Shown piece by piece: positions 31,855-44,021 of a stretch of DNA of 64,000 bases. The DNA lies in assembly GCA_019119535.1 (NCBI GenBank), contig DWWV01000023.1, positions 4,655-68,654 of the forward strand, given 5' to 3'. The translations under genes were made by a program, and so were the position numbers. Source of the stretch: Candidatus Blautia merdigallinarum. GTDB lineage: Bacteria; Bacillota; Clostridia; Lachnospirales; Lachnospiraceae. The notes beneath the pieces were generated by a model that made no database searches, was not told where the DNA came from, and saw nothing but the letters and a program-made list of their open reading frames with translations. How positions within the stretch are numbered: position 1 is the first letter of the stretch; each line of letters starts with the position of its first letter.

Positions 31855-33519
31855 TTACATCTCTGCGGCAGTTCTCAGGTGTTCTACCAGCAGGCTGCGG
31901 ATTCCAGTATATTCGCCAAGTCCCTTTATCACTGGCTCCACTTCAAAACCGGCAGCTTTAAACTGGCTGTACCAGGAATCTGGATCGTCTCCGGCCATAT
32001 CATTTTTGGCATGGTCTCCGGCTACGATCATAAAGGGAGCCAGCACTACTTTAGAAGGATTGTATTCTTTCACCATCCGCATCAGACTTTCCATAGAAGG
32101 ATAGGCTTCCACTGTGCCAAGGAAAATGTTTTTATAGCCTTTATCCTTGAAAGTATAATCCAGAGCGGCATAGATAGAGTTGGCATAATGAGTGGTACCG
32201 TGGCCCATAAGTACCAGCACCTGATCCTGGGCAAGGTCAGAAAATTCATCGGCAATTGCCTGAATCACTGCCAGATTGTCTTCTGCACTGGTCAGGAGAG
32301 GGTCGCCGAAAGAGATGGAATGGAAATCGTTGCGGTAAGCCAGGGCGTCTTCTTTCATCAGATCATTTTCGATACCATTTATAACATGGGTAGGCTGTAC
32401 CAGAACATCGGTGATCCCGTCCTTTTTCATCTGCTCCATGGCTTCACGGACATTGAATACATGGACATTGTCTCGCTCTTTCAGTTTTTTAATGATCATT
32501 TTGCTGGTCCATGCCCGGTAAAGAGCGTAGTCGGGAAAGGCTTCCTGCATATCCCTTTCAATAGCGTCAATCGTGATTTCTCTGGTGTCGTTGTGGCTGG
32601 TGCCGAAGCTTACAGCCAGAATGGCTTTTTTTGTTTCTGCTGTCACTGGTTTCTTTCCTCCGTAATGTGGGTTTAATTTTATTTCTTCTATATATTGCTC
32701 CAGGGTCTTTAAGTTCCTGGGAATTTCAAGGGATGCTTTCAGGATGCCTTTTCTGCACAGACTTTCAAAAAGCTCCAGAACTGCAGGAGGTTCCAGATTT
32801 GTCTGGCTCAGGATCCGTTTATTGGAAAAGACCTGGCTGGGAGAACCGTGAAGGAGAACTTTTCCCTCATGGAAAAGTATCACTTCATCTGCCCACTCAT
32901 AGGCATAATCTACATCATGGGTAGCCATAAGAACGGTAATTCCTGCTTCTGTCATCTGGTCTACAATATGGTTTACCATCTGGGTATGCTTTGGATCCAG
33001 GGCCGCTGCCGGCTCGTCCAGGATAATGATATCCGGATGCATGACCAGGATATCTGCAATGGAGACCTGCTTTTTCTGTCCGCCGCTTAAAGCGTGGGTA
33101 GGCTTATGCCGGAAAGGAGTGATCTCCAGATAATCGATGACTTTCTCCACCTCTTTTTTTGCCTCTTCGGGAGAAACGCCGAGATTCAGGATGCCAAAAG
33201 AGATTTCCTGGTAGACACTGGCAGAGAAAAGCTGGTTATCCGGGTCCTGAAAGACGATGCCCACTTTGCTCCTCAGATCCAGAAGGCTTTTTTTGTCGTA
33301 GGCATATTCCTTTCCTTTAAAAAACAGATGCCCTTTCTGAGGCTTTAAAATCCCTGTACAGCAGAGGAAAAAGGTGGATTTTCCACTGCCGTTGGCTCCC
33401 ATAACGGCTATCTTTTGACCTTTTTTTATTTCCAGAGACAGTCCATTGAGAGAATGGCTGTTGTCATCGTCATAAGAATAATAAAGGTTCTCTGCTTTTA
33501 AGATAATATCTTGATTCAT
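31855..33519 (-). CDS. cbiO-cbiK: Fusion of cobalt ECF ATPase (CbiO) and sirohydrochlorin cobaltochelatase (CbiK)
   Basis: Walker A GANGSGKST, LSGGQKK, LDEP; then AVSFGTS, RAWTS, LMGHGT, PFMIVAGDHAKNDMAG. ATG 33519 overlaps the cbiQ stop (ATGA). Confidence 0.92.
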   Translation of the reverse strand: MNQDIILKAENLYYSYDDDNSHSLNGLSLEIKKGQKIAVMGANGSGKSTFFLCCTGILKPQKGHLFFKGKEYAYDKKSLLDLRSKVGIVFQDPDNQLFSASVYQEISFGILNLGVSPEEAKKEVEKVIDYLEITPFRHKPTHALSGGQKKQVSIADILVMHPDIIILDEPAAALDPKHTQMVNHIVDQMTEAGITVLMATHDVDYAYEWADEVILFHEGKVLLHGSPSQVFSNKRILSQTNLEPPAVLELFESLCRKGILKASLEIPRNLKTLEQYIEEIKLNPHYGGKKPVTAETKKAILAVSFGTSHNDTREITIDAIERDMQEAFPDYALYRAWTSKMIIKKLKERDNVHVFNVREAMEQMKKDGITDVLVQPTHVINGIENDLMKEDALAYRNDFHSISFGDPLLTSAEDNLAVIQAIADEFSDLAQDQVLVLMGHGTTHYANSIYAALDYTFKDKGYKNIFLGTVEAYPSMESLMRMVKEYNPSKVVLAPFMIVAGDHAKNDMAGDDPDSWYSQFKAAGFEVEPVIKGLGEYTGIRSLLVEHLRTAAEM

Positions 33520-34292
33520 GAGAAAAATCTCCTCCATAAGGCAAAAATGAAAAGTGCAGTATCAAAGACTGCGATAGCGGCAATGATTTTTTTTCTGGGA
33601 GGCTGATTCTCTGACAGCACCTGAATTCTGCCATCGTAACACCGGGCTTCCATAGAGTCATAAAGTTTATTGGAGCGGGAGATAGCCCGCATCATAAGTA
33701 CAGAGCCCAGCAGCCCGAAAGACTTTAAAGAAGTCCTGTAATCTTTATTTCCAAGACGGCAGTTCTGGGATGTGGTAATAGCAGAAGCTGTGTTCAGGAG
33801 AATAAAAATAAAACGATAGATCAGCAGCATCAGCTCAATAAGAAGACCAGGGCAGTGGAGTTTTCCCAGTACTTCCAGAATATCCGGCATAGGAGTGGTA
33901 AAGGACAGAAAATACAGGCAGGATACAGCTCCCAAGGCTGTCAGGATCAGCTGTACTGCATAAAAAAAAGAATCGGTACTTGCCGTCACATACCAGCTGC
34001 CGATTGGAATCGCAAAAAGATCCAGAGGGGCTTTTTTGATATTAAACATGATCGCTATTGTGCTTAGAAATAAAAAAGCCAGTGGTACAGTGAGAAACCT
34101 CAGATAACGGAAAACAGGGACCCCGCCTTTCCATACAGCAAGAATCCCTGTCACAGCTAAAACAATACATGCCACTGCAATGGAACGACTCATTACACAA
34201 ATGCAAAGTGTAATCACTGCAAAGGCAAATTTTTCACCGGCATTTTCATAGCGAAGCTTTGAATTATAACAGAGCTTGTCTATGGTAATCAC
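33516..34292 (-). CDS. cbiQ: Cobalt ECF transporter T component
   Basis: FTTPMPDIL, LIYRFIF, SQNCRLG, MEARCYDG. Confidence 0.92.
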   Translation of the reverse strand: MITIDKLCYNSKLRYENAGEKFAFAVITLCICVMSRSIAVACIVLAVTGILAVWKGGVPVFRYLRFLTVPLAFLFLSTIAIMFNIKKAPLDLFAIPIGSWYVTASTDSFFYAVQLILTALGAVSCLYFLSFTTPMPDILEVLGKLHCPGLLIELMLLIYRFIFILLNTASAITTSQNCRLGNKDYRTSLKSFGLLGSVLMMRAISRSNKLYDSMEARCYDGRIQVLSENQPPRKKIIAAIAVFDTALFIFALWRRFFS

Positions 34293-34307: not shown

Positions 34308-34613
34308 TTATTGTTCTTCATGTTTCATCCATTTTCTTCGTTCCACGAACCTGCCCATGATAAAGGCAATGATTCCCACACCGATACCGGTCTGGATACA
34401 AAAGAAAAGGCTTTCAACCTCTCCTGGCAGTTCTCCGCCAATGAGCCTTTCCAGAATAGGAGTGGCCCAGGGCTCATAGGAAGAATCCACCTCTTCTACT
34501 ACCTGGCTGCCTGCATCATCGGAGCCTCCGAACTTGGCATCTTTTAAAGCAAAGAGAGGAACCAGAGCGATTAAAAAAATTAAGAGGATTCCCAGAAACA
34601 CTTTCTTTTTCAT
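34308..34613 (-). CDS. cbiN: Cobalt transport protein CbiN
   Basis: FGGSDD, YEPW, GEVESLFFCIQTGIG. Confidence 0.92.
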   Translation of the reverse strand: MKKKVFLGILLIFLIALVPLFALKDAKFGGSDDAGSQVVEEVDSSYEPWATPILERLIGGELPGEVESLFFCIQTGIGVGIIAFIMGRFVERRKWMKHEEQ

Positions 34614-34616
34614 GGC

Positions 34617-35363
34617 TTATTTTCCCTCCTTTATAAATCCGATAGTACGAAGCTCTGGCTTTGCATAGGTTTCCAGTCCCATGACGATGAGGACTGTAAT
34701 AATCCCTTCAATGATGGCCAGAGGCACCTGGGTAGGAGCAAAAACCACAAGAAATTTCACCAAAGCGCCGCCTATGCTAGTATCTGCATGGTGAGCAAGA
34801 GCCATCTGTAAAGCGGTGATGCAGTATGTGAATAAGTCGCCTAAAGCGGCGGCCAGAAAAACACTGGCCCGCTTGTTCATCCCACTTTTGTTACAAAGTT
34901 TATATATCCCATAGGAAAGGAAAGGTCCTGCTATGGCCATGGAAAAGGTATTGGCCCCAATAGTGGTAAGGCCGCCGTGAGCCAGCAGAATGGCCTGGAA
35001 CAAAAGAACGATCAGTCCCAGCACAGAAACAGCAGAGGGACCGAACAAAATGGCACCCAGTCCAGTTCCTGTCATATGAGAACAGCTTCCTGTTACAGAA
35101 GGGATCTTCAGTGATGAGATCACAAAGATAAAAGCGCCGGACATGGCCAGCAATGTGATCAGATTTCGGTGGTCATTTAAAGTTTTCTTTATGGACATGA
35201 AACCTGCGATCAAAAAAGGCAGGCACAGAACACCCCAGGCAATGCAAAAACCTCCGGGCAGATATCCCTCCATAATGTGCATGGCGCTGACATTGGGGAC
35301 AATGCCGAAGGTGAGGGCAAAAGCCCCTGCCAGAGCCAGAATACGTTTTTCCTGTTTACTCAT
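34617..35363 (-). CDS. cbiM: Cobalt ECF S component with cleavable leader
   Basis: Signal peptide ending VSA, then MHIMEGYLP; SCSHMTG, LLAHGG, QVPLAIIEG. Confidence 0.94.
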   Translation of the reverse strand: MSKQEKRILALAGAFALTFGIVPNVSAMHIMEGYLPGGFCIAWGVLCLPFLIAGFMSIKKTLNDHRNLITLLAMSGAFIFVISSLKIPSVTGSCSHMTGTGLGAILFGPSAVSVLGLIVLLFQAILLAHGGLTTIGANTFSMAIAGPFLSYGIYKLCNKSGMNKRASVFLAAALGDLFTYCITALQMALAHHADTSIGGALVKFLVVFAPTQVPLAIIEGIITVLIVMGLETYAKPELRTIGFIKEGK

Positions 35364-35493: not shown

Positions 35494-35590
35494 CTACCAG
35501 AAGAACAAGAGGTATAGCAAAGCGAATTGAACTGCTATGAGCCAACCTGTTCTTACACGAGGCCATCGTTCGTAACCTGTGTAAATTTCG

Positions 35591-35777
35591 TGTACAAGGC
35601 AGGTCTTCTGACTCGGGTATCTTCATCGTATTTCAGCCTTCCCAGGTGATTTCCCAGTGACGCAGGTTTGCAGAAACCTTGCAAGAAATACAATTCCTCC
35701 CTTACAGCGGCGTGACCGTGTGAGCTTTCCACTCAGCTTTCCTATTCTCCTGCATTTTATGCAGGCACCTTTGTACA
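35591..35777 (-). promoter_or_regulatory. Full-length (class I) cobalamin riboswitch
   Basis: Minus strand AAGGTGC..AATAGGGAA..GAGTGGAAAGCTC..CGCCGCTGTAA..GTCACTG..TGGGAAGGC..GAGTCAGAAGACCTGCC, closed by GTACAAAGG/CCTTGTAC. Confidence 0.92.
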
Positions 35778-35792
35778 TTCAATTCTGGATTT

Positions 35793-35820
35793 ATTGTAGC
35801 ATATACAGGATTTTTGTCAA
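35793..35820 (-). promoter_or_regulatory. SigA promoter for the cbiM leader
   Basis: TTGACA-16-TACAAT with extended -10 TG. Confidence 0.65.
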
Positions 35821-35862: not shown

Positions 35863-35932
35863 GAGAAAAGATTGAGTGGAGATAAGACCGTTCATAATTC
35901 ATAAGAGAAAGAAAATAGGGGAGAGTAAAGAC

Positions 35933-37162
35933 ATGAGTATTTCCATGATTGGAATCGACTACAAAAAGGCATCAGTAGATGTTCGGGCCCAGTTTTCATT
36001 TACGAAAAAAAATACAGTTGCAGCCCTGGAAAATCTGAAAAAAGAGCCGGGAATCCTGGGCTGTATTATTCTGTCTACCTGTAACCGTATGGAGATTTGG
36101 GCCAGTACTGGGGAAGACTGGAAAGGTTCTCTCTATGAATTTTTATGCAGAGAAAAAGAGAAGGATCCGGATGAATTCCGGCAGTATTTTGTTTCCAGAA
36201 AAGAGGAGGAGGCAGTAGAGCATTTGTTCTATCTTACCAGCGGCCTGAAATCCCAGATTCTTGCAGAGGACCAGATCATTACCCAGGTGAAAGATGCCCT
36301 GGCCCTTTCCAGAGAAGCTTACTGTACAGATAATGTTCTGGAGGTATTATTCCGCATGGCGGTTACTGCTGCAAAGAAAGTAAAGACCCAGGTAAGCTTT
36401 TCCAGAGCCAACAGCTCTGTGATCCACCAGGCTATAGAACGTCTGGAAAATCAGGGATTTTCCATCCAGGGAAAAACCTGTATGGTTATTGGAAACGGCG
36501 AAATGGGGAAGGTAACTGCTCTGGCTCTTAAGGAAGCAGGAGCAGATGTAACGGTCACAGTGCGGCAGTACCGCAGCGGGATTGTGACAATCCCTCAGGG
36601 CTGCGACAGGATCAATTATGGAGAACGGCTGGAGTTTCTTCCAAAATGTGATCTGGCAGTCAGCGCTACAGCAAGTCCCAATTATACGCTGACTATGGAG
36701 CAGATTGAAAATGCAGAAATTCCCGGACATATTGTTCTTATCGATTTGGCAGTGCCAAGAGACATTGAGCCTTCAGCAGGGACCCTTAGTAATGTGACCT
36801 TATACGATATTGACAGTTTCAAGATCGATGCCGTATCCCCCAAGCTCCAGGCCAGCCTTGACCAGGCAGGGAAGATCCTTCAGGAGCAGCAGGAGGAGTT
36901 TTACAGCTGGTACAATGGCAGAGATCTGATCCCAAGGATTCAGGAGATCAAGGCAGATGCAGTAGAAGATCTGAACCTGCGTATCATGAAGATATTAAGG
37001 AAGACTCCCATGGAAGAGAAAGACCGGGAAAATCTTTTAAATGCCATTGACACAGCTGCCGGGAAAGTGGTCAACAAGATGATGTTCGGCCTGAAGGATT
37101 TTATGAAAGAAGAAGAGTTTATAAATTGTGTGGAAGGGTTGGAGAAGCTATATGAAGAGTAA
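35933..37162 (+). CDS. hemA: Glutamyl-tRNA reductase
   Basis: ILSTCNRMEIW, SGLKSQILAEDQIITQVK, IGNGEMG, DLAVPRDIEP. Confidence 0.93.
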   Translation: MSISMIGIDYKKASVDVRAQFSFTKKNTVAALENLKKEPGILGCIILSTCNRMEIWASTGEDWKGSLYEFLCREKEKDPDEFRQYFVSRKEEEAVEHLFYLTSGLKSQILAEDQIITQVKDALALSREAYCTDNVLEVLFRMAVTAAKKVKTQVSFSRANSSVIHQAIERLENQGFSIQGKTCMVIGNGEMGKVTALALKEAGADVTVTVRQYRSGIVTIPQGCDRINYGERLEFLPKCDLAVSATASPNYTLTMEQIENAEIPGHIVLIDLAVPRDIEPSAGTLSNVTLYDIDSFKIDAVSPKLQASLDQAGKILQEQQEEFYSWYNGRDLIPRIQEIKADAVEDLNLRIMKILRKTPMEEKDRENLLNAIDTAAGKVVNKMMFGLKDFMKEEEFINCVEGLEKLYEE

Positions 37163-37661
37163 AGAGAAAAAAATGTTTCCCCTCTTTGTGGACCTGACCC
37201 AAAAAAAAGTTCTGGTAGTAGGGGCAGGGAAGATTGCTTCCCGGAGAGTAAAAACCCTTTTGCCCTTTGCAGGGGAAGTGGCAGTAGAAGCCCCTGAGGC
37301 TTCTGAAGAGATCCTCAGCCTGGCCCGTCAGGGAGAGATCCTTTACAGAGAAAAGACCTATTCCAGAGAGGACCTTTATGATGCAGATCTGGTCATTGCG
37401 GCCACAGACAGCAAAGAAGTAAATGAAGATATTTACAGTGCCTGCAAATGTCTGGGAATTCAGGTAAATGTAGCCAGCGACCAGAATAAATGCGACTTTC
37501 ATTTTCCAGGAATCCTGGAATACGAGGGTGTAGTCATAGGATTCAACGGAAGCGGAAAAGACCACAGGAAAGTGAGAGAGGTCCGGGAAAAAACCCAGAA
37601 GACATTGCTGGGAGACAACATGGAGGTACAAGATGAAGAAAGTCATAATCGGCAGCCGTGA
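37152..37661 (+). CDS. sirC: Precorrin-2 dehydrogenase (SirC/Met8p-like, CysG N-terminal family)
   Basis: FPLFVDLTQKKVLVVGAGKIASRR, VIAATD, CDFHFP. Confidence 0.8.
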   Translation: MKSKEKKMFPLFVDLTQKKVLVVGAGKIASRRVKTLLPFAGEVAVEAPEASEEILSLARQGEILYREKTYSREDLYDADLVIAATDSKEVNEDIYSACKCLGIQVNVASDQNKCDFHFPGILEYEGVVIGFNGSGKDHRKVREVREKTQKTLLGDNMEVQDEESHNRQP

Positions 37662-38529
37662 AAGCCGGCTGGCAGTGATCCAGAGTGAAATGGTAAAAAA
37701 ATATATAGAAGAACACTCTCCGGAGATCCAGGCAGAGATCCTGACTATGAAAACAACAGGGGACATTATCCTGGACAGGACACTGGATAAGATCGGAGGA
37801 AAAGGGCTTTTTGTGAAAGAACTGGATAAGGCCCTTATGGAAAAGAGAAGTGACCTCTCTGTGCACAGCCTGAAGGATATGCCTATGGAAGTACCGGAGG
37901 AGCTGCCTTTGGTGGCCTATTCCAAAAGAGAGGATCCCCGGGATGTGCTGGTCCTTCCCAAAGGACAGGAAACCATGGACAAGAGGAAGCCTATAGGCTG
38001 TTCCAGCCTCCGGAGGATCCTTCAGCTGAAGGAGCTTTTTCCGGATATGGAATTTAAGAGCGTACGTGGAAATGTCCTGACCCGGCTGAAAAAGCTGGAC
38101 AGCGGAGAATACAGCGCCCTGGTCCTGGCAGCAGCAGGCCTGAAGAGACTGGGGCTGGAAGACAGGATCAGCCGTTATTTTACTGTGGAAGAAATCATAC
38201 CCGCTGCTGGCCAGGGAATCCTGGCAGTCCAGGGAAGGGCCGGAGAGGATTATTCTTACCTGGCAGATTTCCAGGATCCGGAGGCTGCCGCTGCAGCCAG
38301 AGCAGAGAGGGCCTTTGTCCGCTATCTGGACGGTGGCTGTTCTTCTCCCGTAGCGGCTCACGGACAGGTTCTGGGAGAGGAATTATTCCTCATGGGATTG
38401 TACTATGAGGAAGAAACAGGAAAATACATAAGAGGCAGCGAAAAAGGCAGAATTTCCTCGGCAGAGGAACTGGGGATTTCCCTTGCCCGCAAGCTGCAGG
38501 AAACATACAGGAAAGAAAATCAGCAGTAA
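37633..38529 (+). CDS. hemC: Hydroxymethylbilane synthase
   Basis: GSRESRLAVIQ, KTTGD, GKGLFVKE, VHSLKDMP, RGNVLTRL, GGCSSP. Confidence 0.96.
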   Translation: MKKVIIGSRESRLAVIQSEMVKKYIEEHSPEIQAEILTMKTTGDIILDRTLDKIGGKGLFVKELDKALMEKRSDLSVHSLKDMPMEVPEELPLVAYSKREDPRDVLVLPKGQETMDKRKPIGCSSLRRILQLKELFPDMEFKSVRGNVLTRLKKLDSGEYSALVLAAAGLKRLGLEDRISRYFTVEEIIPAAGQGILAVQGRAGEDYSYLADFQDPEAAAAARAERAFVRYLDGGCSSPVAAHGQVLGEELFLMGLYYEEETGKYIRGSEKGRISSAEELGISLARKLQETYRKENQQ

Positions 38530-38543
38530 AGGAGCAGATAGAT

Positions 38544-40055
38544 ATGAGTACAGGAAAGGTCTGGCTGGTAGGCGCCGGCCCGGGAGATCCGGGCCTGTTT
38601 ACCGTAAAAGGCAGAGAAATCTTACAGAACGCAGAGGTGGTAGTCTATGACAGCCTGGTTGGACAGGGAGTCTTATCCCAGATTCCCAAAGAGGCAAAAG
38701 CCATCAATGTGGGAAAACGGGCTTCTCATCACACTATGCCCCAGGAGAAGATCAATCAGGTCCTGGTAGAAGAGGCAAAGAAAGGCTACCGTGTGGTTCG
38801 TCTGAAGGGAGGGGATCCTTTCCTTTTCGGAAGAGGAGGAGAGGAGCTGGAGCTTCTGACAAAGGAGCAGATTCCCTATGAGGTGGTGCCGGGAGTAACT
38901 TCACCTATTGCAGTGCCTGCCTATAACGGCATCCCTGTGACTCACCGGGACTATACTTCTTCCCTTCATATTATCACCGGTCACAAACGCCAGGGAGAAG
39001 CCTACGATATTGATTTTAAGGCACTGGTGGACACCAAAGGCACCCTCGTTTTTCTCATGGGAGTTACAGCCCTTCCGGATATCTGCGCCTCTCTTCTGGA
39101 GGCAGGAATGGATCCTCAGATGCCTGCGGCAGTTCTCCAGAAAGGAACGACTGCAGGGCAGAAAAGGATTGTTTCCACAGTGGCGGAACTGCCGGAAGAA
39201 GTAAAGCGGCAGGGAGTGGAAACTCCGGCGATTATTGTGGTAGGGAAGGTCTGTGCTCTGGCAGAGGAATTTGCCTGGTATGAAAATCTTCCTCTGGCCG
39301 GGTATAAAGTATTGGTGACCAGACCAAAAGATCTGATTTCCACCATGTCTGCCAAGCTTCGGACACTGGGTGCGGAAGTTCTGGAACTGCCTGCTATACG
39401 GACAGAGCCTCTGGAAGACCAGAGAGAACTGCATCAGGCCTTTAACGAGCTGGATACTTATGACTGGGCTGCTTTCACCAGTCCTACAGGAGTGAAGATA
39501 TTCTTTGAAGAACTGCTGAAAACAGGAACAGATATCAGGAAGCTGGGAGGGATCCGGATTGCCGCTATCGGCAAAGGCACCGAGAAAGCTTTGAAAGAGA
39601 GAGGCTTGATCCCGGATCTGATTCCGGAAATCTATGACGGAGCTTCCCTTGGAAAAGCCCTGCGAGAAGCCTGCTGCGGGGAAGAGCGGATTTTGATCCC
39701 TCGTGCTAAGATTGGAAATCATGAAATTCTGGAGGAGCTGGAAAAGAAACCAGGCCTTCGGATCTCAGATATTGCCACTTATGATACCTTTTATGAAAAG
39801 CAGGAAATCATAGATGAGAAAAAAGAATTTGAACAGGGCGGGATAGACTGTGCGGTATTTACCAGCGCCTCTACAGTAAGAGGATTTGCAGCGGCCTGCC
39901 CGGATCTGGATTATACAAAGGTCACAGCGGCCTGTATTGGAAAACAGACAAAAGCAGCGGCAGACTCCTATGGAATGAAGACCTATATGGCCGAAAAAGC
40001 TACCATAGACAGTGTGCTGGAGCTGGTAATAAGATTAAAGGAAAAGGAGTGTTGA
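38544..40055 (+). CDS. cobA-hemD: Uroporphyrinogen-III C-methyltransferase / uroporphyrinogen-III synthase fusion
   Basis: LVGAGPGDP, RLKGGDPFLFGRGGEE; then VLVTRP, FTSPTGV, FTSASTV, CIGKQT. Confidence 0.93.
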   Translation: MSTGKVWLVGAGPGDPGLFTVKGREILQNAEVVVYDSLVGQGVLSQIPKEAKAINVGKRASHHTMPQEKINQVLVEEAKKGYRVVRLKGGDPFLFGRGGEELELLTKEQIPYEVVPGVTSPIAVPAYNGIPVTHRDYTSSLHIITGHKRQGEAYDIDFKALVDTKGTLVFLMGVTALPDICASLLEAGMDPQMPAAVLQKGTTAGQKRIVSTVAELPEEVKRQGVETPAIIVVGKVCALAEEFAWYENLPLAGYKVLVTRPKDLISTMSAKLRTLGAEVLELPAIRTEPLEDQRELHQAFNELDTYDWAAFTSPTGVKIFFEELLKTGTDIRKLGGIRIAAIGKGTEKALKERGLIPDLIPEIYDGASLGKALREACCGEERILIPRAKIGNHEILEELEKKPGLRISDIATYDTFYEKQEIIDEKKEFEQGGIDCAVFTSASTVRGFAAACPDLDYTKVTAACIGKQTKAAADSYGMKTYMAEKATIDSVLELVIRLKEKEC

Positions 40056-40058
40056 CAA

Positions 40059-41045
40059 ATGGACATGGGGATCAGACCCAGAAGACTCAGAGGGGGAGAA
40101 AGTTTAAGAAAGATGGTAAGAGAGACCAGAATGGATAAAAGCTCTCTGATCTACCCCATCTTTGTAAGAGAGGGAGAGAATCTGAAAGAAGAAATCGCTA
40201 CTATGCCTGGACAGTACCGGTACAGCCTGGACCGGCTTCCGGAAAAACTGGAGGAATTAAAAAAAGCAGGAGTAGATAAGGTAATGTTTTTCGGTATTCC
40301 TGACCACAAAGACGAGGTCGGAAGCCAGGCATATGCAGAGGATGGAATTGTTCAGAAGGCTCTTCGGAAAGCGAGAGAAGAATTTCAGGATGAGCTATAT
40401 CTGATCACCGATGTATGTATGTGTGAGTATACTTCCCATGGACACTGCGGCATCCTCTGTGGACACGAAGTGGACAATGACAAAACCCTGGAATATCTGG
40501 CCCAGACAGCTCTTTCTCATGCAGAGGCTGGAGCGGATATGGTAGCGCCCTCTGATATGATGGACGGAAGAGTCCGGGCTATCCGCACCATCCTGGATAA
40601 GAACGGCTACCGGGATATTCCCATTATGTCTTATGCAGTGAAATATGCCTCTGCCTTTTACGGACCTTTCCGTGATGCAGCAGGTTCTGCCCCGGCTTTC
40701 GGCGACAGAAAGAGCTATCAGATGGACTTCCATAACCGAAGAGAAGCTATTAAAGAAGCTCTTCTGGATGTAGAAGAGGGAGCGGATATTATCATGGTAA
40801 AACCGGCAATGAATTATCTGGACATTATCCGGGAGGTAAAAGACCAGATCCATCTTCCGGTGGCATCTTATTCCGTCAGCGGAGAGTACGCTATGGTCAA
40901 GGCAGGAGCAAAGCTGGGATACATAGAGGAGGACCGGATCATCTGTGAGATGGCAGTCAGCGCTTTCAGAGCAGGAACAGATATTTATTTAACTTATTTT
41001 GCAGAAGAAATCGCAAAATTCTTAGACGAAGGGAGAATCGGATAA
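40059..41045 (+). CDS. hemB: Porphobilinogen synthase
   Basis: RPRRLR, DVCMCEYTSHGHCG, APSDMMDGR, FYGPFRDAA, MVKPA. Confidence 0.96.
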   Translation: MDMGIRPRRLRGGESLRKMVRETRMDKSSLIYPIFVREGENLKEEIATMPGQYRYSLDRLPEKLEELKKAGVDKVMFFGIPDHKDEVGSQAYAEDGIVQKALRKAREEFQDELYLITDVCMCEYTSHGHCGILCGHEVDNDKTLEYLAQTALSHAEAGADMVAPSDMMDGRVRAIRTILDKNGYRDIPIMSYAVKYASAFYGPFRDAAGSAPAFGDRKSYQMDFHNRREAIKEALLDVEEGADIIMVKPAMNYLDIIREVKDQIHLPVASYSVSGEYAMVKAGAKLGYIEEDRIICEMAVSAFRAGTDIYLTYFAEEIAKFLDEGRIG

Positions 41046-42316
41046 TGACAAGATCAGAAGAGCTGTTTCAGAGAGCAGTGAAAAGAATCCCGGGAGGAGT
41101 AAACAGCCCGGTACGAGCCTTTGGTTCTGTAGATGAGGCTCCCAGATTTATCCAGGGAGCTGTGGGAAGCAAGATTTTTGATGTGGACGGAAACGCTTAT
41201 ACAGATTATATCGGTTCCTGGGGTCCTATGATCCTGGGGCATAATGATGAGCGGATAAAAGAAGCGGTGATCCGTGCCAGCGAGAACGGATTAAGTTTTG
41301 GCTGCGCTACAGAGCGGGAAGTAGAGATGGCAGAGTTTATCTGCCAGCGGATCCCTCATGTGGAAATGATCCGTATGGTGAATTCCGGTACAGAAGCAGT
41401 TATGAGCGCTATCCGCACGGCCAGAGGCTATACCGGCAAGAATAAGATTATTAAGTTCGCCGGCTGCTACCATGGTCATACGGACGCCATGCTGGTAAGT
41501 GCAGGAAGCGGCGTGATGACCAGCGGCGTACCGGATAGTGCCGGTGTGCCAAAAGGCTGTACCCAGGATACCATGATCGCAGTGTATAATGATCTTGACA
41601 GCGTGGAAAAATTAATGGCAGAAAGCCAGGACCAGGTGGCAGCAGTGATCGTAGAGCCGGTGGCTGCCAATATGGGTGTGGTTCCTCCTAAAGACGGTTT
41701 TCTTCAGGGGCTGCGGGACCTGTGCGATAAGCACAAAGCGCTGCTGATCTTTGATGAGGTGATTACCGGTTTCCGCTTAAGATTCGGGGGAGCGGCAGAA
41801 TACTACGGAGTGACGCCTGACATGGTTACTTATGGAAAAATCATCGGCGCAGGCATGCCTGTGGGAGCCTACGGCGGAAGAAAAGAGATCATGGAAATGG
41901 TGGCCCCCAGCGGCCCAGTCTACCAGGCAGGTACATTAAGCGGCAACCCTATTGCTATGGCAGCAGGTCTGGCTCAGCTGAAAATCCTCTGGGAGGACCA
42001 GGATATTTATAAACGTCTCTTCCAGAAAGGAGAAATCCTCTTTGAGGGAATCCGGAAGATTTTTGCGGAGAAGGAAATCGGATATCAGGTAAATTCCGTA
42101 GCTTCTCTTGGAAGTATTTTCTTTACAGAAACCCCTGTGGTGGATTACCAGTCAGCTAAGACTTCTGACACGGCGGCTTTCTCAAAATATTTTGAATATA
42201 TGCTGGAGCATGGAGTTCATCTGGCGCCTTCTCAGTTTGAAGCTATTTTCCTTTCTGACGCTCATACAGAGGAAGATATCCAGCAGTTCTTAGAACTATT
42301 AAACAATTATTTTTAG
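41045..42316 (+). CDS. hemL: Glutamate-1-semialdehyde 2,1-aminomutase
   Basis: PGGVNSPVRAF, NSGTEA, GCYHGH, FDEVITGFR, GKIIGAGMP, AGTLSGNP. Confidence 0.96.
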   Translation: MTRSEELFQRAVKRIPGGVNSPVRAFGSVDEAPRFIQGAVGSKIFDVDGNAYTDYIGSWGPMILGHNDERIKEAVIRASENGLSFGCATEREVEMAEFICQRIPHVEMIRMVNSGTEAVMSAIRTARGYTGKNKIIKFAGCYHGHTDAMLVSAGSGVMTSGVPDSAGVPKGCTQDTMIAVYNDLDSVEKLMAESQDQVAAVIVEPVAANMGVVPPKDGFLQGLRDLCDKHKALLIFDEVITGFRLRFGGAAEYYGVTPDMVTYGKIIGAGMPVGAYGGRKEIMEMVAPSGPVYQAGTLSGNPIAMAAGLAQLKILWEDQDIYKRLFQKGEILFEGIRKIFAEKEIGYQVNSVASLGSIFFTETPVVDYQSAKTSDTAAFSKYFEYMLEHGVHLAPSQFEAIFLSDAHTEEDIQQFLELLNNYF

Positions 42317-42323
42317 GTGAACT

Positions 42324-44021
42324 ATGTATAACGATACCGTAATCGGGCTGGGAGTGATCCTTTTGTTCCTGGTGGGAGCGGGAGTCCTGAATCATTATGA
42401 AAAGAGAAATCGAAAGAAACTTTTTCTGGAAAGGATGATGGCTTCCTGGGGCAAGATCCCCCAGCGGGAATACAGTTATGATGAACTGGAGCATATATCC
42501 CAGTTTTTCCGCAAAAGAGAAAAAGAAGGCTTTTATATTGACGATATTACCTGGAATGACCTGGATATGGACAGGATATTTGCCCTGGTCAACCAGAGCA
42601 TTTCTCCTATAGGAGACGAATATCTCTATGAGCTCCTGAGAAAGCCGGTTTTTGAGGAACGGGAATTACAAGAGCGGCAGAGACTTCTGGAATTTTTCTC
42701 AGAGAAAGAAAAGGAGCGGCACAAGGTACAGGCTCTTCTTGCCGGAATCCGAAAACCGGGAAATGTAAGCGTTTATGAGGCTGTCAGTGTAACGAAAGAG
42801 GTAGAGATCCAGGGAAAAGGATTCCAGATAGTTATGTGCGGCGCCTTTTTCCTTTCCCTTATGTTTTTTGCAGCCATGCCTTCGCCGGGAATCTTTTGCT
42901 TCCTGGGAGTCTGCATTCTGAATATTATTACGTATTTCATGCGAAAGCAGGATATTGATCTGTATCTAACCAGTTTCCGCTGTGTGATCCAGCTTCTGGA
43001 GGCACAGAAAAATCTGGAAAAACTGAAGATTCCGGAGCTCGTCTCTTATATGGAAGAAGGAAAAAGATGCCGGAAAGAACTGCGGGCCTTTCAGAAGGGA
43101 TCCTTTCTGGTCCTGGAGCAGAGCAGCACAGGGGGAGGGATGGAAGGGCTGATCATGGATTATATCCGTATGCTTACGCACATTGACCTGATTAAGTTTT
43201 CTACCATGATGAAGGCTATGCAGGAACATCAGGAAGAAATTTTGGGTCTGATGAAGATTTTCGGATATCTGGATGCCATGATCTCCATTGCGTCTTTCAG
43301 AGTAAGTCTGCCTTACTACAGCATACCGGAACTTGAAATGGCAGGCAAAGCTTATCTAAAGGTGGAAAACCTGTACCATCCGCTGCTTTCTCATCCTGTG
43401 GCCAACGGCATAGAGGCAGAGAACGGGATTTTGGTAACTGGCTCTAACGCCTCGGGAAAATCCACTTTTCTGAAGAATATAGCGGTAAATACCATTTTGG
43501 CTCAGACTATCTATACTGTTACAGCTTCTGAATACCAGGCGCCTTATTTTAAAGTTATGACTTCCATGGCTCTTCGGGATGATCTGGAAAGGGGAGAGAG
43601 CTATTTTATCGTGGAAATACGTTCCCTGAAAAGGATTTTAGATGAGACAGAAAAAGAAGGCTGTCTTTTATGTATCATTGATGAAGTCTTAAGAGGGACG
43701 AACACGATTGAAAGGATTGGTGCATCTTCCAGGATACTGGCGGGTCTGGACAGGGAGCATGTGCTGCCCTTTGCAGCTACCCATGATATTGAGCTGTCTT
43801 ATATTCTGGAGGACCTGTACGAAAACTATCATTTTGAGGAAGAAGTAAAGGAACATGAGGTAGTCTTTAATTACCTGCTGAAGGAAGGCAGAGTGACCAC
43901 CAGAAATGCCATACGCCTTTTGGAAATGACGGGATATCCGGAAAACCTGTCAGAAGAGGCAAAAAAAGCAGTGGCAGATTTTGAAGAGACAGGAATCTGG
44001 GAGAAAGTACAAAAATTCTGA
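42324..44021 (+). CDS. Membrane-anchored MutS-related protein (ATPase domain V only)
   Basis: N-terminal TM, DDITWNDLDM, YHPLL, TGSNASGKST, IIDEVLRGTNT, ATHD. Confidence 0.85.
   Translation: MYNDTVIGLGVILLFLVGAGVLNHYEKRNRKKLFLERMMASWGKIPQREYSYDELEHISQFFRKREKEGFYIDDITWNDLDMDRIFALVNQSISPIGDEYLYELLRKPVFEERELQERQRLLEFFSEKEKERHKVQALLAGIRKPGNVSVYEAVSVTKEVEIQGKGFQIVMCGAFFLSLMFFAAMPSPGIFCFLGVCILNIITYFMRKQDIDLYLTSFRCVIQLLEAQKNLEKLKIPELVSYMEEGKRCRKELRAFQKGSFLVLEQSSTGGGMEGLIMDYIRMLTHIDLIKFSTMMKAMQEHQEEILGLMKIFGYLDAMISIASFRVSLPYYSIPELEMAGKAYLKVENLYHPLLSHPVANGIEAENGILVTGSNASGKSTFLKNIAVNTILAQTIYTVTASEYQAPYFKVMTSMALRDDLERGESYFIVEIRSLKRILDETEKEGCLLCIIDEVLRGTNTIERIGASSRILAGLDREHVLPFAATHDIELSYILEDLYENYHFEEEVKEHEVVFNYLLKEGRVTTRNAIRLLEMTGYPENLSEEAKKAVADFEETGIWEKVQKF

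Follow-up and report, generated by a model that had tools for sequence, protein, structure and literature searches.

The CbiMNQO cobalt importers of Salmonella enterica, Rhodobacter capsulatus (PDB 5X3X), and Clostridium perfringens (CbiO1, PDB 3GFO), together with the class II sirohydrochlorin cobaltochelatase CbiK of S. enterica (PDB 1QGO/2XWP), are the described systems closest to the locus considered here. CbiK as described is a free cytosolic enzyme; according to a review, it draws Co(II) from a buffered pool on thermodynamic grounds alone, with no delivery protein described there, and cobalt supply can limit B12 synthesis (PMC7689651). In the 64,000-nucleotide window analysed here, from contig DWWV01000023.1 of Candidatus Blautia merdigallinarum, importer ATPase and chelatase are encoded by one minus-strand open reading frame (ORF), cbiO–cbiK, at window positions 31855–33519 (554 amino acids plus stop). 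The locus resembles the known importers in its cbiM-N-Q-O order, its cobalamin riboswitch, and its ATPase motifs, but unlike theirs its CbiO lacks a stop and runs on into a complete CbiK; that CbiK resembles the Salmonella enzyme in its full-length match and invariant His/Glu/His, but is covalently tied to the importer ATPase. With a probability of roughly 0.7, we read cbiO–cbiK as a dual-product gene, yielding a chelatase tethered at the importer and, beside it, a pool of free CbiK.

Both halves of the protein are complete, as a preliminary description of this DNA had claimed. The CbiO domain (residues 1 to about 278; 32686–33519, minus strand), an energy-coupling factor (ECF) ATPase, matches ABC_tran (PF00005) with 108 bits over residues 30–177 of the 560-residue form of the protein and TIGR01166 (cbiO) with 230.4 bits against a cut-off of 211.8, while the CbiO equivalog models (PRK13636 and others) score below their own cut-offs. 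It aligns with residues 3–257 of 3GFO and with residues 6–270 of the CbiO chain of 5X3X. Walker A, the Q-loop, the LSGGQ signature, the Walker B aspartate, and the H-loop histidine are intact, with no variation at G41, N43–S48, S145, G147, Q148, D168, or H201 among 42 fused homologues. The CbiK domain (31858–32646, minus strand) matches PF06180 with 288 bits against a cut-off of 26.2 (residues 304–558 of the 560-residue form, profile positions 1–261 of 262) and the NCBIfam equivalog NF047852 with 266 bits, which is under the strict 400-bit cut-off of that model. Residues 297–553 align with residues 2–257 of Salmonella CbiK (1QGO), and in that register H440 of the GHGT motif, E471, and H503 of the GDHA motif fall on His145, Glu175, and His207, of which we take Glu175 to be a catalytic or metal-binding residue. 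The two histidines, in the C-terminal half of the enzyme, are named in a review (PMC7689651); both motifs, reported intact in the preliminary description, are indeed so, and are invariant together with E471 in the 42 fused homologues. Each half is thus, as far as family models and alignments go, an ordinary member of its own family: a predicted Co2+-importer ATPase and a predicted cobaltochelatase.

The open frame itself extends from 33537 to 31855 and would give 560 residues, but the true start is probably the ATG at 33519, giving 554, because this ATG overlaps the cbiQ stop as ATGA, has GGAGGAG 9–10 nt upstream, and is where most homologues are called. Such an ATGA overlap (33516–33519) usually points to translational coupling. 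The ATG farther upstream, at 33537, falls within the Shine–Dalgarno (SD) sequence, and its use is improbable.

Between the two domains the minus strand reads TAC GGA GGA AAG AAA CCA GTG. The tyrosine codon TAC (32662–32664) occupies the site of the former cbiO stop; GGAGGA (32656–32661), translated as Gly-Gly, has the form of an SD sequence; and after a 9-nt spacer (32647–32655) there follows an in-frame GTG (32644–32646) from which a free CbiK of 263 residues would be read. These coordinates, the spacing, and the product length are as first described. The predicted product would be about 4 residues longer at its N-terminus than Salmonella CbiK.

The evidence that carries our reading is the way in which these nucleotides have been conserved. 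In a codon alignment of 33 members of the genus, the first linker glycine is GGA in 33 of 33, the sole single-codon column among 28 fully conserved glycine columns; the second is either GGA or GGT, so that GGAGG is invariant, and the 26 other glycine columns use three to four codons each. When changes are counted on the genus tree, the 100 fourfold-degenerate columns that are conserved carry a mean of 8.0 synonymous third-position changes, against 0 at the SD GGA, which is one of only two zero-change columns in that set. Furthermore, 13 of the 1655 five-nucleotide windows of the alignment are invariant: 11 begin with a Met or Trp codon, one is GAA-TA, and one is GGAGG. GGAGG is the only one to span a fourfold site, and neither Met or Trp codons nor twofold-degenerate codons account for it; it lies within the least conserved stretch of the protein. 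The second zero-change column (alignment column 542, residue ~334–340, near 32500–32520) is a conserved threonine codon in or beside an invariant run TGGACC (Trp-Thr).

The start codon behaves in a similar manner. Its column holds GTG in 18 species, TTG in 8, and ATG in 3, and the remaining 4 species have an ATG 3 or 6 nt nearer the SD. Seven state changes at the site have never produced a non-start codon, and the third position is unchanged throughout. Gene-wide, GTG makes up 25% of the valine codons and TTG 6.6% of the leucine codons. We have partly discounted the TTG preference as stand-alone evidence, since TTG is one of only two leucine codons a single step from GTG; it is the unchanged third position that is informative. 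From the end of GGAGG to the GTG there are 10 nt, a distance shared by 27 genes of this genome, whose real starts have their mode at 7–9 nt. In all eight species compared, the 50-nt region centred on the site has a weaker fold than 89–99% of windows from the same ORF, and weak mRNA folding is a known property of initiation regions (PMC3121790).

Beyond the genus, GGAGG with an in-frame start 4–13 nt downstream is kept in 59 of 64 fused genes, and one more has AGGAGA with ATG. A distant fusion at 43% identity (L144) reads AGG AGG AAG CCA TCG GTG, with the SD translated as Arg-Arg, again 9 nt from a GTG; the constraint therefore acts on nucleotides and not on amino acids. Another (L145) has GAG GAG, 6 nt, and TTG, and its Glu-Glu register is suggestive only. 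Finally, the one split member of the genus, G033 (“Firmicutes bacterium OM04-13BH”), has no other CbiK or CbiX according to a search of its genome, so the same SD must drive cbiK translation there.

Three other accounts of these observations were considered and set aside. That GGA GGA is merely a favored way of encoding a Gly-Gly linker does not agree with the variation at the other 26 glycine columns or with the Arg-Arg of L144. Upkeep of the SD by intermittent selection during split phases sits badly with a single, nested split species among 33, set against a mean of 8 synonymous changes. As to an internal promoter as the source of free CbiK, a consensus scan of the minus strand gave no promoter-like site within cbiO, which is weak negative evidence. 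On this comparative basis, selection acts on the SD and start codon at the level of nucleotides, and free CbiK is probably also made by internal initiation; the free form alongside the fused one, proposed in the preliminary description as one of two possibilities, is thus favored by the data.

The fusion is old and widespread. It is present in 32 of the 33 genus members, and whole-genome searches find a single CbiK, within an open frame of ~567–570 residues, in nearly every species of the genus. Proteins of equal length at 83–100% identity are abundant, for example in Blautia hansenii DSM 20583 and several chicken-gut “Candidatus Blautia” metagenome-assembled genomes (MAGs); the nearest fused relative is Ca. 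Blautia ornithocaccae, at 96%. A survey of 78 named related species representatives gave 64 fused, among them B. producta DSM 2950, B. caecimuris, B. hominis, B. schinkii, Hominisplanchenecus, Lactonifactor longoviformis, Murimonas intestini, Oliverpabstia, Robinsoniella, and Ca. Fusicatenibacter. With one genome taken per genus, CbiK occurs in 164 of 300 Lachnospiraceae genera; in most genera CbiK is free-standing, and among 20 loci with long CbiK frames that were fetched, the CbiO–CbiK fusion was found in nine genera beyond the window's own. In other families of the order, cbiK is a gene of its own that follows cbiMNQO, and this gene order is therefore older than the fusion. Distant fusions at 36–43% identity, one of them in Ca. 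Limnocylindrales (Chloroflexota), have the same cbi(M)NQ-[O-K] context and are probably independent events.

Two further observations concern related genes. In a Ca. Blautia stercoravium MAG (L072, DXFK01000031.1, ~1480–1505), and also in L020 (G012), cbiQ, cbiO, and cbiK stand in one frame of more than 750 residues; in comparison with B. hansenii (L071), L072 has an extra base beside a T7 run, which abolishes the ATGA overlap of cbiQ stop and cbiO start. This triple fusion could be real or could be a homopolymer assembly error. Secondly, many Lachnospiraceae carry another type of CbiK-family protein (L056, L057, L058, L062), with matches of ~828 nt in frames of 400–600 residues and a long N-terminal extension ending in the conserved motif FGRDTGDAS...D.PLN.D.IGE, unfused to CbiO. 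Comparison with a FetB match (PDB 9B86) suggests a possible extracytoplasmic or haem-related paralogue.

The junction codon suggests how the fusion arose and shows how it can be undone. A tyrosine codon directly precedes GGA GGA in all fused Blautia, and in the 33 genus members the column is TAC 27 times, TAT 5 times, and TAG once. The TAG belongs to G033 (CAA TAG GGA GGA ACT ATG), whose fused sister G010, at 98% protein identity, has CAA TAT GGA GGA ACT ATG. In gene trees, built from the fused protein itself, G033 is nested within the fused clade and the G010/G033 pair has support of 100/100; G033 is therefore a one-base reversion, TAT to TAG. At least seven changes between fused and split states are required on the tree of 80 relatives. 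The origin of the fusion is best explained, from these comparisons, by an ancient stop-to-Tyr change at a cbiO stop abutting the cbiK SD, an old stop loss that fits because the junction TAY coincides with the TAG of a nested split relative. A recent loss of the stop, the other possibility offered in the preliminary description, is refuted by a state fixed in 32 of 33 genus members and found in about ten Lachnospiraceae genera.

The dual-product reading can then be set out as follows. The cbiO stop immediately before the cbiK SD would have mutated to tyrosine, the spacer becoming a flexible linker of ~18 residues, and initiation at cbiO would now yield a 62-kDa CbiO–CbiK. With no stop after cbiO, all ribosomes on cbiO run on into cbiK, and CbiO–CbiK is therefore made. 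CbiM, CbiQ, and CbiO occur at 1:1:2, that is, with two CbiO per CbiMQO (PMC7689651), and two chelatase domains are therefore expected per importer, at its cytoplasmic end. The old cbiK site (GGAGGA, 9 nt, GTG) would still be used on the same mRNA for the free enzyme of 263 residues. The tethered enzyme would be the first to reach imported Co2+, while the free one would provide bulk capacity. That the fused protein is itself of use is indicated by two fused genomes, G099 and G168, which have neither the internal start nor, according to a genome search, any other CbiK or CbiX domain, so that in these two the tethered enzyme must be enough; the recurrence of the fusion in distant lineages likewise points to a useful fused protein.

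Several observations qualify this reading or weigh against it. The genome has 1509 long ORFs, and within them GGAGG with an in-frame NTG 4–13 nt downstream turns up 581 times (about 0.39 per gene); in one genome by itself the SD/start motif is weak evidence; it is the position at the domain junction and the conservation across species that, by sequence comparison, far exceed chance. Most internal starts in the genus are GTG or TTG, against ATG in all 13 split relatives, and internal initiation may thus be weak, although such starts fit initiation that has been tuned down and not lost. The internal SD and start are absent from the fused genes of G099, G168, Ca. Fusicatenibacter, L142, and L146, the last two being distant fusions from G+C-rich organisms (70–75% G+C), so the free form is not universally needed. 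Selection holding the fused state has modest evidence: the junction codon has 1 stop-creating transversion where fourfold sites average 4.3, but 10 of 98 sites are equally low. Lastly, the fusion point, at the C-terminal end of CbiO, is far from the membrane in ECF structures, and a literal channel is not obvious.

The simplest competing explanation would be a tolerated read-through, in which free CbiK is the working chelatase, the tethered copy contributes little, and being fused is near neutral. Strong selection on SD and start would suit such a view, as the free form then matters; so would the repeated interconversion of fused and split genes among the 80 relatives, some of it by a single base, and a junction-codon test that is only suggestive. 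Near neutrality, however, is hard to square with at least four fused lineages that have lost the internal site, two of which (G099 and G168) have their sole chelatase in fused form, or with a fusion that recurs in distant phyla at the same operon position. Moreover, only 1 of 33 genus species has reverted, though of the three possible changes at the third position of TAY, two create a stop. We consider read-through of this kind unlikely. Conversely, the fusion protein could be the only product, GGAGG having some other role within the ORF, for example as a pause site by anti-SD pairing so that CbiO folds or docks on CbiQ before CbiK emerges. GGAGG does coincide precisely with the domain boundary, its conservation is at the nucleotide level, and some fused lineages lack any start codon; but a pause site does not explain why a start-capable NTG has been kept 4–13 nt downstream through seven state changes, why the mRNA is locally unfolded, or why cbiK in the split revertant starts from this very site. 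SD-induced elongation pausing is itself disputed, which counts further against the idea, and we regard it as very improbable.

There is, finally, the prosaic explanation of an assembly or sequencing error, or of a recent, strain-specific loss of the cbiO stop, for which it can be said that the tyrosine codon TAC is one base from a stop codon. The junction, however, is open in dozens of separately assembled genomes, among which are complete ones and those of cultured type strains, for example B. producta DSM 2950, B. hansenii, B. caecimuris DSM 29492, and Lactonifactor longoviformis DSM 17459, and identical or near-identical proteins are found on several other contigs. The sequencing error that had been envisaged in the preliminary description is refuted, and the probability of any artefact of this type is negligible.

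How the tethered enzyme might be placed relative to the importer was approached through an AlphaFold model of the monomer, within whose reach the position of CbiK relative to CbiMNQ does not lie. The model has a mean predicted local distance difference test score (pLDDT) of 84 and two confident domains, the last CbiO helix being formed by residues 270–278. The linker that follows (residues 279–296; 32632–32685, minus strand), derived from the former cbiO–cbiK spacer, is the most variable segment of the protein, Y-G-G excepted; its block 281–290 has a pLDDT of 54, and the predicted template modelling score (pTM) is 0.52. From the low linker pLDDT and this pTM, the model indicates that CbiO and CbiK are joined by a flexible tether, without a fixed mutual orientation.

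It is plausible that cobalt would be channelled from the importer to the chelatase. A more specific proposal, a working importer–chelatase machine in which either Co2+ is passed kinetically to tethered CbiK or CbiK occupancy gates the ATPase, we hold to be rather doubtful. By channelling, imported Co2+ would meet tethered CbiK before mixing with the buffered cytosolic pool; by gating, the CbiK domain would signal metal or sirohydrochlorin occupancy to the ATPase. Free CbiK, in such a machine, might set the tethered-to-free ratio or act as a partner of the tethered domains.

The surroundings of the gene are those of cobalt import and tetrapyrrole synthesis. cbiO–cbiK, which holds the sole CbiK or CbiX domain found in a search of the 3.08-Mb assembly, is the last gene of a riboswitch-led minus-strand operon, in an order shared with relatives and distant fusions. 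A sigma-70-like promoter, TTGACA-16-TACAAT with TG (35793–35820; 11 of 12 matches in a consensus scan), precedes a cobalamin riboswitch as the operon leader (35581–35788; Rfam RF00174, 92.8 bits against a gathering score of 31.5, full model 1–189), the only riboswitch at gathering score in a scan of the whole window and on the cbiM side alone. There follow cbiM, the S component (34617–35363; PF01891, 183 bits; TIGR00123, 268 bits, over cut-off), cbiN (34308–34613; PF02553, 74 bits), and cbiQ, the T component (33516–34292; PF02361, 141 bits; TIGR02454, 155 bits, over cut-off), whose TGA overlaps the cbiO ATG. Divergent from these, on the plus strand, is a sirohydrochlorin-synthesis operon (35876–42316) of hemA, a precorrin-2 dehydrogenase-like gene, hemC, cobA-hemD, hemB, and hemL, with Pfam matches to GlutR, NAD_binding_7, Porphobil_deam, TP_methylase and HEM4, ALAD, and Aminotran_3. 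This operon supplies the tetrapyrrole substrate of CbiK. The cobalt-import and sirohydrochlorin operons share one control region; cobA-hemD (38544–40055, 503 residues) is itself a fusion; and directly after hemL lies a gene for a 565-residue protein (42324–44021, plus strand) with only a MutS domain V match (MutS2-like).

The database names of the fused proteins are machine-given, either “sirohydrochlorin cobaltochelatase” or “cobalt ABC transporter, ATP-binding protein”, and with genes named for one function, pathway reconstructions can miss the other. Whether the fusion is already a widespread and described architecture, as the preliminary description allowed, has a divided answer: it is widespread in genomes, but no CbiO–CbiK fusion is described in the full-text literature searched, with subscription journals mostly outside its coverage, in one comparative-genomics paper that was checked, or in the B12/cobalt review (PMC7689651).

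A recurrent, selected fusion of importer ATPase and chelatase suggests a benefit of physical proximity, in contrast with the view of a buffered pool. The machine reading, if true, would be a case of natural metal channelling to a class II chelatase, an enzyme currently thought to have no need of a delivery system. Natural controls are at hand in the one-base fused and split sisters G010 and OM04-13BH and in fused lineages with and without the internal start. As an example of gene-fusion evolution, the locus has an intergenic ribosome-binding site surviving as coding sequence, with probably two proteins per ORF. Blautia are abundant gut B12 producers, and their cobalt capture bears on gut cobamide supply.

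The Bacillus subtilis genes lysC, cheA, and infB each yield two proteins from one ORF through an internal in-frame start. Further functional analogues are cas8/Cas11 (PMC11899642) and the internal starts mapped with retapamulin (10.1101/520783). In cbiO–cbiK, likewise, an in-frame internal SD and start would lead to a C-terminal product beside the full-length protein. Unlike in cas8/Cas11-type genes, the short product of cbiO–cbiK, predicted from sequence, is the whole product of a former gene and no mere subdomain; the site is the relic of an intergenic ribosome-binding site, and close relatives interconvert between fused and split. The importer ATPases MetN (C2 domain), ModC, and MalK carry C-terminal substrate-sensing regulatory domains. 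The likeness of these to CbiO–CbiK is topological only, namely an extra domain C-terminal to the nucleotide-binding domain, on a flexible linker and able to bind an ion or intermediate; in contrast to theirs, the attached domain is a complete substrate-consuming enzyme. The fusion is also akin to others of tetrapyrrole and B12 synthesis, such as cobA-hemD in the window and a methylase–CbiG in L142, in that consecutive pathway steps are placed in one polypeptide. Those, however, are pairs of soluble enzymes, while cbiO–cbiK joins a transporter subunit to an enzyme and has kept the internal start.

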